Source: Myxococcota bacterium
GTDB lineage: Bacteria > Myxococcota_A > Polyangia > Nannocystales > Nannocystaceae
DNA: 64,000 nucleotides
Assembly: GCA_039028615.1 (NCBI GenBank)
Contig: JBCCHT010000011.1
Span: 128,001-192,000, forward strand
Direction of reading: 5' to 3'
A program made the translations under genes and the position numbers. This document shows positions 52,752 through 60,893 of this stretch, in pieces. Each line of letters starts with the position of its first letter. Position 1 is the stretch's first letter. The notes below the pieces were generated by a model that had not been told where the DNA came from, searched no databases, and worked only from the letters and a program-made list of their open reading frames with translations.

Positions 52752-53552
52752 GTGAGCCGCCCGTTCGCAGACGCAGTCGCACAGTCGCGCCTTGCGCGCA
52801 ACGGACGACTGCTGCCCCGCTTGGGCCTGTGGCTCGGCGTCGTGGCTCTATGGATGGGCATCGGCCTGCTGCCGAGCACGGCGGAGGCCCGCGGGCGCCG
52901 CGTGGTGCCCGATCTCCGCAACCCGTCCGAGGTCAGCCTGCACGCCAATCGGCGCATGACCACCGTCGGGCTCACCGTGCACGTGGCCTCGAGAGACGGC
53001 GTACCCGTCGCCTCGCGCCGTCAGATCGTGCAGTGGATCGAGCGCGCCAACGAGGCCCTCGACCCCTTCGACATCGAGGTCCAGCTCCATCGGCAAGTGC
53101 CGATGACCGGCTACACCCGCGTCACCCGTCGCAAGCAGCGGCGACAGCTCGCCTCCATGGCCGAGTACGACGGCACGATCCACGTGTTCGTGGTCGAGAG
53201 CCTCGACGAGCTTCGCGTCGCGGGCCTGCGGCGCCGGGTTCGTGGCCTGCACTGGCGCTACCGCGGCCTCAGCCGAGAGTACCGCCAGCGCGAGTACGTG
53301 GTCGTCACCCTCGGTGCCCCTCGCACCACCTTCGCCCACGAGATCGGCCACCTGCTCGGCCTGCGCCACAGCAACGACGATCGCAACATCATGTGCAGCT
53401 GTCGGCGAGGCTCCAACCTTCGCTTCAACGAAGAACAAGGCGCCATCATGAAGGTCGGCGTGGGTCGCTTCCTGTCCCGACAGCAGCAAGCCCAAGCCCG
53501 CGTGCAGGGTCAGCGCCGCCGCAACCTCGACCGCGCCCGTCGTCGGCCCTGA
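52752..53552 (+). CDS. Matrixin-like zinc metalloprotease
   Basis: Signal peptide; HEIGHLLGLRH followed by the Met-turn NIM. Confidence 0.85.
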   Translation: MSRPFADAVAQSRLARNGRLLPRLGLWLGVVALWMGIGLLPSTAEARGRRVVPDLRNPSEVSLHANRRMTTVGLTVHVASRDGVPVASRRQIVQWIERANEALDPFDIEVQLHRQVPMTGYTRVTRRKQRRQLASMAEYDGTIHVFVVESLDELRVAGLRRRVRGLHWRYRGLSREYRQREYVVVTLGAPRTTFAHEIGHLLGLRHSNDDRNIMCSCRRGSNLRFNEEQGAIMKVGVGRFLSRQQQAQARVQGQRRRNLDRARRRP

Positions 53553-53596
53553 GCCGCGCGAGGCGGCTACTCGAGCAGCGCTCGCAGCTCGTCGCG
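53552..53596 (+). repeat. Left 45-bp direct repeat (att-like)
   Basis: agccgcgcgaggcggctactcgagcagcgctcgcagctcgtcgcg, identical to 57909-57953. Confidence 0.95.
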
Positions 53597-53672
53597 CGAC
53601 ACGGCAACCTGAGCCGCGCAGGGCCGCTAGTCATGCCGCGCCGCACCACCCACAGATTTCCCACGCTAGGTT

Positions 53673-54629
53673 CTACTCGACCAGCACCCTCGTACCGCAA
53701 AACCGATGCTGCGGAAGCACACGCCGTTTCGGCGGACGCCTACTCATCACATGAAGGTACGTCACAGATGCTTCCAAGAGCGCCACAACACCCAGTGCTA
53801 GAGCGTGCGGTTTTGGACCGAGAGGAACGAGACAGAAGTTTGACTCCGAACCGCGTGGCACCAACTCCCGAACGGCAGTAGCGACATCAACTACAGCCTC
53901 CAACGGAGCACGTACCACATTGCGGGCCTGCTCCAACACCAAGCTATTCGTCTCGAGCACTCTGCCAACCGAACTCGCTTCCACTCCAGGATCAGCCAAC
54001 AATGCGTGAACGGCATGAGGTTGAAGCACCTCCAGCAACGCCCCCGACTGAGCACCATCGTAGCCCAAGCCGATCAAAAACTCCTCACGATCGCTTTCAA
54101 TGCCAGCCCCTTCGAAACCAGGAATCGCATAGATATCATCGACCTCCGCGGCATCCCAGTTTCCACAGTCATCGCGTTGGCCCAGATCATACACAAACAC
54201 GACTTCTGCAGGAGCAACAAGACACGCCAACGAAAGCATGCCAACATAGTACGGCTTCGGAAAGCAGCTGTAGTCGACAAGAACCCGAGCCATTCCGTCG
54301 CGTCGCTCCGACACAAGGCGACGGACCTCACGAAAGCACCGTGCGTAATGCGCAATCGGGAGTTCGAGGACATCCGGCATAATCCGGCGCATCTCAACGT
54401 CAACGTTCCTGCGAACATTGTCGTCTTTTCTCTCCTCGAACAGCACCCCCAACCCAACACCCGAGAAAACCCTACGAAACCGAGAAAAAGCTGAACGAGC
54501 TCTTGGCTCAAAGCTCGATGCAGCTAACGCAACATCAAACTCAGAGTCTTCAATCTCCTCAATTTCCTCATGCGTAAGGTCTGAGACTACAACCTGCCGC
54601 CCCCGCCATCGGCCAACCAAACTACTCAC
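53673..54629 (-). CDS. Islet gene C: hypothetical protein with two Rossmann/CARF-like repeats
   Basis: GTG at 54629 after GGGAGG, 8-bp overlap with the ATPase; motifs ASSFEPR, VLVDYSCFPK, IGLGYDG, LVPLGPKPHALAL. Confidence 0.75.
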   Translation of the reverse strand: MSSLVGRWRGRQVVVSDLTHEEIEEIEDSEFDVALAASSFEPRARSAFSRFRRVFSGVGLGVLFEERKDDNVRRNVDVEMRRIMPDVLELPIAHYARCFREVRRLVSERRDGMARVLVDYSCFPKPYYVGMLSLACLVAPAEVVFVYDLGQRDDCGNWDAAEVDDIYAIPGFEGAGIESDREEFLIGLGYDGAQSGALLEVLQPHAVHALLADPGVEASSVGRVLETNSLVLEQARNVVRAPLEAVVDVATAVRELVPRGSESNFCLVPLGPKPHALALGVVALLEASVTYLHVMSRRPPKRRVLPQHRFCGTRVLVE

Positions 54630-56331
54630 CGCTACCTCCCAGACCGAGCGGTAGTTGATACGCCAAAGGCACAGCCTCACCTTTCCTTAAAGCTAGCCAG
54701 AACTTCGGTGCCAAGCCAAAGGAAAGCCAATATTGATGATAGGCCTGAGGAAACCCATCCCTTTCATCGAACTCCCAGGGGCAAAGGACCCCATAGGCGA
54801 TTGAAGTTTGAAGAACCAGAAGCTCCTCGCCTTCGTATTTCGACAAATCGAAAGAAACAGAACAAGAATCACGAACAACGCCATCAGCACGATGAAGACG
54901 ACGCTCCAACATATCACCAATAAACTCTACAAATCGCACGACACTTTTTCCACAACGAGGCAGTGAACTCAGGCGATTAAAGGCTCCTTCTGCAGCTTCC
55001 CTTATCACCGTTGACTGCACACGCATATCCACGAAGCGATCTGTTTCAGCCGCGACGAAGACCCTGTCCATCAAACGAAGAAACCGACGGGGAATACCAT
55101 CAGACGCAGCTACCAGATCATTCCAGCCACCGTACACAGCAGGCTCAGCAGCACCTCGACTGCCGGTTCTAAGCAAACGCATTGCGACCGAAGGCACGTA
55201 CTGCCTAGCGGAGTCTGAGTCAGTCTTCTTTTCCTCAAACGGAAGCAACACCTGCATATCCGAGGGTTGAAGCCGCGCAAAGAAGGCATGTGCATTGCTA
55301 TCAGTCTCCAAAAACTCGGCTGCGCGCTCTCGCAGACTAGAACCACCGAGCCAAGCATCTGGTTTCTGATGTATCTCTGCGCCAGGATGCGCACGCACTC
55401 TTTTCCCGTATACATCCAGACAAAAACGCGCAGTAGATTCGCTTTTTGGATCTAAATACAGGGCAACATATTCGAAGTCTTCACCAGGAACAAGCGGATT
55501 ATTCTCCGCCTGGGTTTCTAGTGTTTTATGACCATGCGGCAAACAAGCCAACTTGAACACCAATGGAAACGACACATTCCGCACCGCTGTGTTTACATGG
55601 AGTTGTTGTCGCACGGAGAGATTATCAAGCTCATCCAGACCAAACACCCATATAACCGGAAGGCTCCGTCCAAGGGATTGATCCAGCTCGGATTGAATCA
55701 GCGCCACAGCTGCGGCAATGGGATCAAAAAAGCCGCTAAGGAGCACTCCTTCCGGTGCCTGGACGTCGTCGCCGAACGCCCCTCGGAGGCAAGCGTCATG
55801 TATCTGCTGCTGGGCTTTACTCAGCCGTCCTCTAAGGTCCCGAACGCCGAAATAGCCTCCTCCATTTATGTCACAGAAGAACTGAGATCCTAGAATCGCG
55901 GCCGCACGCGCCTCCAGCTCAACCCCATTCAGGCCATAGACGGTCCCAACATACTCGCAGAATCGGCTAACGGCTGCGACGAATCGGTCGGCAACCAAAA
56001 GATTGAGGGCGAAAGCAAACAGAACATCACGTCGGCCATCCGAAATCCAACCGCGGCGCTGGAAGCCAGCGACCCAACGCTGACCAAGGGGCACATAGGT
56101 CCCCACCGTGAGCGGTCGCCCCCCCTTTTCAATCTCGTCGACCTTGGGTGGCCTGGTAATCCAGCGAAGAAGTGTAGATTTTCCTGACCCACGGCACCCC
56201 TGAATAATGTGAGTTCTTCCATCCTGAAGGTCCCCCAATTTCGGGCGCTCGCAATACGTGTCGTAGACGTATTCATCGAGCATGCGTTCTGCTCGACGTA
56301 GCCGGAACGGGTTTCTATCTTCCTTAGACAT
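54622..56331 (-). CDS. Islet gene B: ORC/Cdc6-like (STAND-related) P-loop ATPase
   Basis: N-terminal NPF, Walker A GCRGSGKS, Walker B VFGLDELD, SDGIPRRFL helical motif, C-terminal wHTH-like region. Confidence 0.85.
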   Translation of the reverse strand: MSKEDRNPFRLRRAERMLDEYVYDTYCERPKLGDLQDGRTHIIQGCRGSGKSTLLRWITRPPKVDEIEKGGRPLTVGTYVPLGQRWVAGFQRRGWISDGRRDVLFAFALNLLVADRFVAAVSRFCEYVGTVYGLNGVELEARAAAILGSQFFCDINGGGYFGVRDLRGRLSKAQQQIHDACLRGAFGDDVQAPEGVLLSGFFDPIAAAVALIQSELDQSLGRSLPVIWVFGLDELDNLSVRQQLHVNTAVRNVSFPLVFKLACLPHGHKTLETQAENNPLVPGEDFEYVALYLDPKSESTARFCLDVYGKRVRAHPGAEIHQKPDAWLGGSSLRERAAEFLETDSNAHAFFARLQPSDMQVLLPFEEKKTDSDSARQYVPSVAMRLLRTGSRGAAEPAVYGGWNDLVAASDGIPRRFLRLMDRVFVAAETDRFVDMRVQSTVIREAAEGAFNRLSSLPRCGKSVVRFVEFIGDMLERRLHRADGVVRDSCSVSFDLSKYEGEELLVLQTSIAYGVLCPWEFDERDGFPQAYHQYWLSFGLAPKFWLALRKGEAVPLAYQLPLGLGGSGE

Positions 56332-57574
56332 GAGATGGAAAAACCTTCCAATACGGAAGATCCTGTCCGACGTCGGTGGCTGTCAACCCACGCACGTTGG
56401 ATTCCTCGACGACGAGTTCACGCAGAATCGTGGTTTCCAGACCATACAACTCAGACTCCCTTTCTAGCGTCCGCCCCAGGTGTGGCGCGGAGCTGCTGTC
56501 ATCTAGGATGCGCCCCACGTGAAGACGTGCGTCGTCAAGAGTCGTCGCACGTCCGAACCGGAAGACGGCGGGGTTCTCAGGATCCGACGGAGGCCTCCAT
56601 CCCGAAGCCGCCTTTTCTATCGTCCGAACCAATCCGTACGTAACACCAGAATCACGACCGGCCACATCAATGCGATGGACCGCACAGCGAGTGTTCCCTC
56701 CGCCTCGCTCGCTTGGTACAGTAGCGAGGGACGCAGCACCGAACACGTGCGCCTGATGGCCCTGTGTACCAGTTTCCCGAAGATATGATCGCTCATGGCG
56801 GTGGCCATGAAGAACCAGATCGATCTTACATCGCTCGACGAAATCTGACAGTGCTGCCGAATTTGTACAAACACTAAAATCGCGCCGACCAGCCCCATCA
56901 GCGCCGGGCTTAGTGTGATGATGCAACACCAACACCCGAAGATCAATGGAAGAAGAAAGAACACCACTCTCTTCAAGGCAGCTCAACTGCCATGGGTCAA
57001 TGTGGCCAGCGTGGAGGTTCACATCATAGTCTTCCCTACAGGCTGAATTTATCCCAAGAATCGCCATACGGCCGACCGTGGACCAATGCACAAAGCCGGC
57101 GACACCATCAAGCGAGTACGGATGCCTTTGATCCGTAGATAGCCCCTCAACCCTCGAGCAAAAACTGAGGTACGGACTAAAGCGCATTGAACGAAATCCC
57201 GAATCGTTATCTTCACCAAACGACACTGCTTCTTTCGGCTCATCAGGCAAAGACAACTTAGTCAGCGCCCATGCAACATCGTGATTCCCAGGCACCGTGA
57301 AGACGGGCGTAGGCACTGAAGACCCCCATAATCTCCCCAGTTCTCGGCAAAACTCTTCCGCTTGCCAAAATTCATACGGTGATGCAGATGTGGTAATGTC
57401 TCCAGAGAGCACGACAACATCAGGGCGTTCCCATGCCTTCAACGCCTCTAGAAGTTCCTTAAAGAGAGGATCTCTCAGAACGGAAGGCGGGTCCGAAGGG
57501 TCGGTAGGAGAAGCCAGACACAACTTACCGAATTGAACGTCGGAAAGATGAAGGATGCTGCCCATGGATTTCAT
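56324..57574 (-). CDS. Islet gene A: calcineurin-like (CpdA-type) metallophosphoesterase with C-terminal extension
   Basis: LHLSDVQ, SGD, PGNHD, LHHH, LHGHRH; 8-bp overlap with the ATPase. Confidence 0.9.
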   Translation of the reverse strand: MKSMGSILHLSDVQFGKLCLASPTDPSDPPSVLRDPLFKELLEALKAWERPDVVVLSGDITTSASPYEFWQAEEFCRELGRLWGSSVPTPVFTVPGNHDVAWALTKLSLPDEPKEAVSFGEDNDSGFRSMRFSPYLSFCSRVEGLSTDQRHPYSLDGVAGFVHWSTVGRMAILGINSACREDYDVNLHAGHIDPWQLSCLEESGVLSSSIDLRVLVLHHHTKPGADGAGRRDFSVCTNSAALSDFVERCKIDLVLHGHRHERSYLRETGTQGHQAHVFGAASLATVPSERGGGNTRCAVHRIDVAGRDSGVTYGLVRTIEKAASGWRPPSDPENPAVFRFGRATTLDDARLHVGRILDDSSSAPHLGRTLERESELYGLETTILRELVVEESNVRGLTATDVGQDLPYWKVFPSHV

Positions 57575-57597
57575 ACAATGGTCACCCGGCGCGGCTC

Positions 57598-57626
57598 ATT
57601 CTAGGGTAGGCAGAATTTGTTCTCAA
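57598..57626 (-). promoter_or_regulatory. Putative sigma70 promoter of the islet operon
   Basis: Minus strand TTGAGA-17 bp-TAGAAT, 23 bp upstream of the ATG at 57574. Confidence 0.65.
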
Positions 57627-57923
57627 TAACCGGTTTTCTGTATTCTAGCCGGCTGCTGGGGCGTATGCGGAACACTCAGAAACACCTACCTGAACGTATT
57701 GCTTGGAGGAAGTGCACGCGAACACAGAAAGCACTGAAGCCTCGTCGAACTGCGTCATGGGGCGCTTTTGATTCGAGATGCGTCACGACGGAGCATCGGC
57801 ACGACGCATTTTGCAAAGGCCCGTTCGTGCCAACTGTCAGTAGTTCGCACCTCCTCGTACTTTCCTGCGGACGGCAAAGACGAACACAGGCGAATAGGCA
57901 AATAGACCAGCCGCGCGAGGCGG

Positions 57924-60893
<2,970 letters not shown>

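Follow-up and report, generated by a model that had tools for sequence, protein, structure and literature searches.

What is the function of a small islet, low in guanine plus cytosine (GC), that carries three overlapping genes in the genome of a Myxococcota bacterium of the family Nannocystaceae (assembly GCA_039028615.1)? The islet lies within a 64-kb stretch of contig JBCCHT010000011.1 (positions 128,001 to 192,000), which was analysed as a whole and is called the window here; all coordinates given for the islet are those of the window. An earlier reading of the same DNA, the original prediction, had proposed an undescribed defence system in which an ATPase switch controls a nucleotide-degrading effector, with the third protein as sensor or adaptor. 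From the present analysis, the triplet is probably a divergent, methylase-less copy of a conflict cassette, most likely directed against phages or plasmids, which in its full form combines a DNA methylase with an effector, an ATPase and a tandem-CARF protein. The three genes, in their order of transcription, are:

56324-57574, minus strand: gene A, calcineurin-like metallophosphoesterase of 416 aa (Pfam PF00149)
54622-56331, minus strand: gene B, ORC-CDC6-like P-loop ATPase of 569 aa (Pfam PF24389)
53673-54629, minus strand: gene C, tandem-CARF protein of the PADLOC CARF6 family, 318 aa

The evidence for a cassette comes from the gene neighbourhoods of relatives of B. When metagenomes were scanned with a pattern derived from aligned relatives of B, 60 loci were obtained, falling into 49 clusters at 95% identity; a 73-row alignment (A1) was too diverse for a pattern scan, and a 6-row alignment (A2) gave 8 loci. 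One of these 8, L033, has a C-terminal fragment only and was excluded from the counts. As judged by local profiles, A stands directly upstream of B in 46/46 loci with at least 900 bp there (38/38 after 95% clustering), a count that is partly the result of selection since the search pattern was built from phosphoesterase-type ATPases. C follows directly downstream of B in 40 of the 41 loci with enough contig and in 34/34 after clustering, the sole exception being L075, whose contig looks rearranged. Thus the triplet is conserved as a unit in the metagenomic neighbourhoods of its homologues, as would be expected from the original prediction.

A fourth gene belongs to most of these loci. Where the contig shows at least 1 kb on each side of the triplet, a D12 (Dam-type) methylase accompanies it in 24/26 cases (20/22 after clustering); the methylase mostly lies just upstream of A, but in L060, L080 and L084 it follows C. 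The two misses are L067, which has a divergent D12 methylase seen by Pfam alone, and L059, which has none. Four loci from genomes (L028-L031) carry the four-gene cassette in the same order, and on a Methylobacterium plasmid its members are annotated as Dam methylase, metallophosphoesterase, hypothetical and hypothetical (in RefSeq, B and C are each a 'hypothetical protein'). On the plasmid NZ_CP099612.1 (L114, 7845-11200), a gene pair annotated as a CHAT domain protein and a second metallophosphoesterase adjoins the four-gene cassette and possibly forms another conflict module. In L041 and L042 (~100-2900) the D12 methylase is split, with the two parts covering profile positions 6-142 and 142-270; an ORF (open reading frame) with a DDE-transposase domain stands between the halves in L041, and a phage-integrase fragment stands downstream of the cassette in L042.

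The first slot of the cassette is variable. L026, L032, L034 and L035 show PRTase-CE (PF24390) followed by the ORC-CDC6-like ATPase and CARF6, and the methylase of these PRTase forms is of the C5, N6/N4 or MTS type. They share with the window the ATPase family, the CARF6 family and the order effector-ATPase-CARF6, but differ from it in having a PRTase effector and one of these methylases, whereas the window has a metallophosphoesterase and no methylase. Since the effector and the methylase family vary among loci, the ATPase and CARF6 are the constant core of the cassette, and the effector and the methylase family are interchangeable. A different arrangement of the ATPase was observed in L103 (G332:C232, 5750-9589), which encodes a 1280-aa protein with a protein kinase domain fused to an ORC-CDC6-like N-terminal region; Atlas clusters with this kinase-ATPase fusion comprise 344 members.

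The distribution of the cassette is patchy. PF24389 was detected at E ⩽ 1e-10 in 4/401 genomes of the phylum, the window genome included, and strong matches occur in 3/73 genomes of the order. The cassette is therefore sporadic and rare within any one group, yet it is spread over distant phyla, plasmids and defence islands. When the ORFs flanking the cassettes were compared with PADLOC models, 19/93 matched at E ⩽ 1e-8 (cassette methylases detected by the local profile are not counted among the 93), a descriptive figure that has no matched background. The matches are to type I, II and III restriction-modification, AbiEi, WYL, SIR2/pAgo-like, PDC-S57, mad8 and one TPR protein, together with L067's own methylase. 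In L074 (1007-12204), the D12-phosphoesterase-ATPase-CARF6 cassette interrupts a type I restriction-modification operon, with hsdM-hsdS on one side and hsdR on the other. The suggestion that homologues sit near defence genes is supported in so far as they are often found amid restriction-modification and other defence genes.

The domain assignments of the original prediction (metallophosphoesterase, ORC/Cdc6 ATPase and tandem CARF-like protein) are all confirmed by the agreement of Pfam, PADLOC and fold comparison. B matches PF24389 with an E-value of 1.3e-73 (249.1 bits against a cut-off of 27) over model positions 1-571 of 571, and its Atlas neighbours are all PF24389. Its Walker A (GSGKS, residues 48-52) and Walker B (D233-E234) motifs are intact as predicted, and the invariant residues in the alignment of B are G45, G48, G50 and D233. 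The protein is nevertheless far from its relatives, with 13-23% identity to the other 42 aligned ATPases. In a quick tree, neither the window B nor the ATPase of L101 falls within the two main phosphoesterase-type clades; both have long branches, which make their placement unsure. A Pfam search found no recognisable toxic domain in B. No match to B was obtained by tblastn against phage records, a single-protein scan of genome contigs with B gave no relatives, and a sequence search of the PDB returned nothing for B or C, hence no similar complex has been solved as far as sequence can tell.

C has no Pfam family. It is matched by ten PADLOC CARF6 models (best E-value 1.6e-22), and an exhaustive search returned 425 representative relatives at E ⩽ 1e-3, nearly all of them 300-345 aa long; the viral contigs contained no relative of C. 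Its AlphaFold2 (AF2) model has a mean predicted local distance difference test (pLDDT) value of 95.6 and, on comparison by VIA-align, is best matched by Can1 (PDB 6sce; Z 12.9, root-mean-square deviation (rmsd) 3.5 over 228 residues), with model residues 31-300 and hence both halves covered. Cam1, Csm6, Card1, Can2, Cdn1 and Csa3 (Z 9.0-11.5) follow, within a series of CARF proteins that includes Cad1 and scores Z 8-11.5 over the C-terminal half, and SAVED domains reach Z 7-8. The modelled fold of C is thus a CARF (Rossmann-like) fold. A whole-chain Foldseek search had placed tandem universal-stress proteins and KCC C-terminal domains at the top, with a template-modelling (TM) score of only 0.25 and an rmsd of ~17, and the exhaustive VIA-align comparison was preferred.

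CARF proteins are receivers of the cyclic-oligoadenylate signals made by type III CRISPR systems, and Can1, an ancillary nuclease of such systems, resembles C in that a single chain forms a pseudo-dimeric CARF pair. In contrast to Can1, C carries no nuclease domains, is only 13% identical in sequence and is encoded at a locus without Cas10 or another cyclic-oligoadenylate synthase. Conserved loops are found after strands 1 and 4 of each half (S39/E41/R43, D119/Y120, L188/G189 and P269-G271-P272-K273-H275), which we take to be the putative CARF ligand loops, and the invariant CARF6 residues are all kept in C.

A matches Pfam PF00149 with an E-value of 1.9e-15 (58.3 bits against a gathering cut-off of 21.5) and also matches PADLOC candidate models; a PHROGs search gave a generic metallophosphoesterase match alone (1.4e-5). 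Its motifs read D12-V-Q14, G58-D59, G96-N97-H98-D99, H218 and G257-H258-x-H260, so that four of the five phosphoesterase motifs are intact, while motif I keeps its Asp and has the His changed to Gln. The motif I His of this enzyme family binds a metal, and mutating it cripples related enzymes. Of 45 distinct cassette homologues, 42 have His here and 2 a gap, and the window copy alone has Gln; counted over the aligned homologues that have a residue there, H14 is nearly invariant (42/43). The original prediction had listed five motifs with DxQ as the first. That sequence is indeed present next to four intact motifs; DxQ is no trait of the family, being unique to this copy.

The AF2 model of A (pLDDT 78) has an extra C-terminal part (~345-416) of low confidence. 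The nearest folds are those of Lmo2642 (2xmo; Z 24.9, rmsd 3.4, 271 residues aligned), Rv0805 (3ib7; Z 24.1) and GpdQ (2dxl; Z 22.3), followed by SMPDL3B (Z 21.9) and a zebrafish dimetal phosphatase (2nxf; Z 21.7), whereas the Mre11/SbcD nucleases score lower (Z 15-18.5). As modelled, A is therefore nearest in fold to small-molecule phosphodiesterases that act on cyclic nucleotides or glycerophosphodiesters. The class III cyclic-nucleotide phosphodiesterases and GpdQ resemble A with Z 22-25 over 253-271 residues and are also its sole sequence matches in the PDB (1.5e-4 to 9.5e-4, including Lmo2642 and GpdQ). They differ from A in sequence (16-20% identity), in the extra C-terminal part and in the Gln at motif I.

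A direct contact is predicted within the constant core. The ATPase and the CARF6 protein are predicted to bind each other with an ipSAE (interaction prediction score from aligned errors) of 0.84 (0.83, 0.84 and 0.84 in individual runs), against 0.01 for the best of 3 controls; the contacts agree to at least 84%, and the partner pLDDT is at least 85. This mark is reached by 116/157 solved complexes and 2/215 mismatched pairs, counts that apply here only approximately because our own alignments were used. The predicted interface involves residues 81-95 and 167-187 of B and residues 160-182 of C.

How could such a cassette work? The logic of the original prediction (an ATPase switch with an effector and a sensor) fits the present data and gains from the predicted B-C contact, while its mechanism is a proposal. 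We suggest that the ATPase-CARF6 pair would form a two-input switch, in which the ORC/Cdc6-like ATPase may read DNA (self DNA being marked by the methylase where the cassette is complete), and the pseudo-dimeric CARF pocket may read a nucleotide-type ligand that comes from outside the cassette. The switch would then license the phosphoesterase. A similar dual control has recently been proposed for another system, in which an ORC-CDC6-like part senses DNA and a second part senses diffusible nucleotides (bioRxiv 10.64898/2026.10.19.760177). The ATPase is the probable hub of the proposed arrangement, because the ATPase-CARF6 pair is fixed, the effector is variable, and effector and ATPase are occasionally fused. 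Since the fold of A is nearest to small-molecule phosphodiesterases, the likely outcome would be that the infected cell arrests or dies through nucleotide-level damage, and not through classical DNA restriction.

Several observations speak against reading the triplet as a conflict cassette of this kind. The upstream position of A owes something to the search pattern, and the count of neighbouring defence genes is descriptive. No enzyme that makes a CARF ligand is encoded in the islet. The DNA-binding part of B is assumed from the family name, and the literature searched holds no phage or plasmid phenotype for any member of this cassette. The cassette-type D12 profile finds no methylase in the 64-kb window. 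With Gln14 in place of His, this copy may not act as described. In addition, the methylase-less loci L059 and L101 keep the motif I His, so that a methylase is not strictly needed to carry an intact effector, which makes a simple restriction-modification logic less convincing.

Nor did the methylase families PF02086, PF01555, PF00145 and PF02384 have a match anywhere on the contig of the window (C11). The genome has a single D12-class methylase gene, on another contig (G000:C2:8386-9078, within a 393-aa frame, L100 8197-9375). We have rejected this gene as a partner, since it has the native GC of 0.68-0.73, lies far from the islet and matches the profile weakly (2e-5). A comparable triplet without methylase is L101 (G264:C41, 13-15972), from another family of the same phylum. 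Because both the window copy and L101 seem to lie outside the main clades, the absence of the methylase may be a lineage trait rather than a recent loss. The window copy may be attenuated, or it may work without methylation. L101 is flanked by genes for a Vsr-like endonuclease, a 1898-aa FtsK-kinase protein and a 1450-aa SNF2-type protein. The window also has a SNF2 neighbour, which was considered as a link between the two loci and dismissed as coincidence, the helicases being not orthologous and similar at the level of motifs only.

The islet itself could be delimited precisely, and its boundaries are as follows:

53552-53596, no strand assigned: left 45-nt direct repeat, att-like, which duplicates the last codons, stop and terminator hairpin of the SNF2 gene
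53597-57908, no strand assigned: unique part of the low-GC islet, 4312 bp (4357 bp with one repeat copy)
57909-57953, no strand assigned: right 45-nt direct repeat, which overlaps the true SNF2 3′ end and stop (57924-57926)

The islet is flanked by the genes of a SNF2 helicase and a metalloprotease. The two repeats (family D3) are 100% identical, are spaced by 4357 bp and occur in these two copies only in the whole 12.3-Mb genome. The right copy includes the stop and a terminator-like hairpin of the SNF2 helicase gene (57924-60893, minus strand), which is present in 73/73 genomes of the family and hence a core gene. In two genomes of the same genus, G047 (L105) and G050 (L106), the site is empty and the flanks are contiguous, with the sequence left of 53581 or 53573 joined to that right of 57921 or 57928. 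These observations identify the islet as an insertion with att-like repeats at its ends, and the triplet is a small, horizontally acquired piece of foreign DNA. None of the five other genomes of the genus has a real PF24389 match, no integrase was found within the islet by the ORF list and Pfam, and nothing similar to the islet was found among plasmid records by megablast.

Some further features of the insertion were seen. In the only sequencing run with this DNA, a metagenome from which it may derive, the islet (53567-57938) is a separate 4372-bp contig, broken exactly at the 45-nt repeats. The word depth in the metagenome contigs was 14.4 for the islet and 19-22 for the flanks, contig depth not being equal to the share of cells. 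The metagenome contigs agree with the window, and the joined (empty-site) form was not seen among them. Short GAGCCGCGC-type repeats (family D1) are grouped at the left end of the islet (window 53548-53641).

The gene arrangement within the islet agrees with the original prediction of three overlapping genes on a low-GC islet, as the ORFs, both overlaps and the drop in GC are all found. A and B overlap by 8 bp (ATGTCTAA), as do B and C (GTGAGTAG), and the GC content is 0.50-0.57 in the bins of 54000-57999 vs 0.67-0.73 in the flanks. The chosen starts of B and C are backed by the N-termini of homologues, while one Atlas record begins B at residue 17 instead. C is taken to start at a GTG preceded by GGAGG (318 aa), and a longer frame of 335 aa is possible from 54680. 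The predicted promoter is also present:

57598-57626, minus strand: promoter-like site TTGAGA-17-TAGAAT, 23 nt upstream of A's ATG, a consensus match only

This site agrees with the consensus at 10/12 positions and is the top one of 4 hits, compared with a mean of 1.8 hits (sd 1.4) in shuffled sequence. A 14-nt inverted match pairs 53610-53623 with 57585-57598, the latter located between the -10 box and the start codon of A. Rfam gave no match at E ⩽ 0.1 across 53400-58100, and there was no RNA run among the listed sequencing runs with this DNA.

The best surviving alternative, which we consider rather unlikely, is that the window copy is a decaying or defused remnant with no present function, which came in on a mobile element and whose methylase was lost or never there, a state tolerated because the motif I His is mutated. 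It agrees with the uniqueness of Gln14 among the 45 distinct homologues, with the finding of no methylase in the window or elsewhere on its contig and no integrase in the islet, and with the presence of a clearly decayed relative in the same family. This relative, L027 (G055:C623, 18-2152), has a 627-aa frame that joins the phosphoesterase to the N-terminal half of the ATPase, followed by a short C-terminal fragment of CARF6, at the start of a contig and in low-GC DNA. The window copy looks different, however: all three frames are full length against the profiles of relatives (A 1-410, B 2-578 and C 7-309), and Walker A/B, the invariant CARF6 residues and the phosphoesterase motifs other than motif I show no loss. 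As the two 45-nt repeats have not diverged, the islet may have been inserted recently, and Gln might still hold a metal. The intact His of the methylase-less L059 and L101 also speaks against a remnant.

Whether the first-slot enzyme is an effector at all can be asked too. It could instead make or trim a nucleotide signal for CARF6, with the ATPase as the output that, for example, blocks replication on DNA. The fold of A, nearest to cyclic-nucleotide and other small-molecule phosphodiesterases, would suit such a role, as would the filling of this slot by nucleotide-metabolising enzymes (PRTase-CE in the sister loci) and the lack of another ligand source in the locus. Among CARF and SAVED proteins, some are known to sense signals and others to cleave them (bioRxiv 10.64898/2026.10.19.760177). 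On the other hand, PRTase-CE is the effector family of type III-A retrons (PADLOC model name PRTase_III-A; table in PMC13712802), B has no recognisable toxic domain, and some relatives fuse an enzyme to the ATPase as an N-terminal effector-like domain (the kinase-ATPase protein of L103 and the Atlas clusters). We regard a signal-making or signal-trimming enzyme as improbable.

An addiction or maintenance module of mobile DNA, similar to a selfish restriction-modification system and distinct from host immunity, is the least probable explanation and very doubtful. In its favour, almost every full cassette combines a methylase with a module that is potentially toxic, and the cassettes occur sporadically, on plasmids and beside integrase, resolvase or transposase genes. 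Against it, the window copy and L101 persist without a methylase, and other cassettes are found within defence islands and, in one case, within a type I restriction-modification operon; immune and addiction roles are not mutually exclusive.

With a conflict cassette as the preferred reading, the question is whether it was already known. The term 'undescribed' in the original prediction was too strong, since curated models exist for B (PF24389) and C (CARF6) and PRTase-CE sister cassettes occur. Comparison of the single proteins with PADLOC 2.0.0 and NCBIfam pointed to no named system, and full-text searches of the main texts of papers turned up no description of the cassette; contexts with PRTase, ORC or calcineurin are not discussed in Makarova 2014 (PMC4012209), and none of the terms looked for occurs in the 2025 CRISPR classification paper (PMC12669027). 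The cassette is thus real, conserved and catalogued piecemeal, and the window copy is an unusual methylase-less form of it with an altered active site.

Two sets of known systems are worth comparing. Metallophosphatase domains can be essential defence parts, as in DS-8 and DS-9 of DefensePredictor, where this domain is required for phage defence and DS-8 couples it to a P-loop NTPase (NACHT) (PMC13092281). The DS-9A model (NF053862) matches A at residues 5-266 (7e-24, 84.5 bits), well below its equivalog cut-off of 420. Unlike DS-9, the islet has no gene for a HAD phosphatase partner, and unlike both systems, the window has an ORC-CDC6-like ATPase encoded by a separate gene and a CARF protein. 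As an analogy only, BREX/Pgl also combines a methylase, an ATPase of the ORC/Cdc6 clade (BrxC) and a phosphatase-superfamily protein (PglZ), which act together with no obvious nuclease (PMC12839542). However, no BREX protein family was matched, A belongs to a different superfamily from PglZ, and BREX has no CARF protein.

As for the source of a ligand, the islet holds A, B and C only, and neither Cas10 nor a CD-NTase is present as signal synthase in this locus, to which the search for synthases was confined. A bolder form of the cassette model, which we put forward tentatively and consider unlikely as it stands, is that ATPase-CARF6 is a new CARF signalling module independent of Cas10 and CD-NTase, whose tandem CARF pocket would sense a nucleotide-like metabolite that the cassette does not make and, jointly with a DNA-bound ATPase, would license interchangeable nucleotide-destroying effectors (phosphodiesterase, PRTase and perhaps others). 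The metabolite could be a product of phage attack, or a methylation-tied molecule such as S-adenosylmethionine or S-adenosylhomocysteine (SAM/SAH); SAM/SAH as the ligand would explain why any methylase family suffices. If this form of the model is true, the window lineage shows that the core can run without a methylase.

Taken together, these results show a double-CARF protein whose constant partner is an ORC/Cdc6-like ATPase, which comes with one of several interchangeable effectors and mostly also a methylase, and whose locus encodes no signal synthase. Should the cassette prove to be an immune system, it would combine the marking of self DNA by methylation with the sensing of nucleotides, and metallophosphoesterases would become part of the effector repertoire. 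As a natural variant without methylase and with Gln in its metal site, the window copy could reveal which components of the cassette are dispensable.

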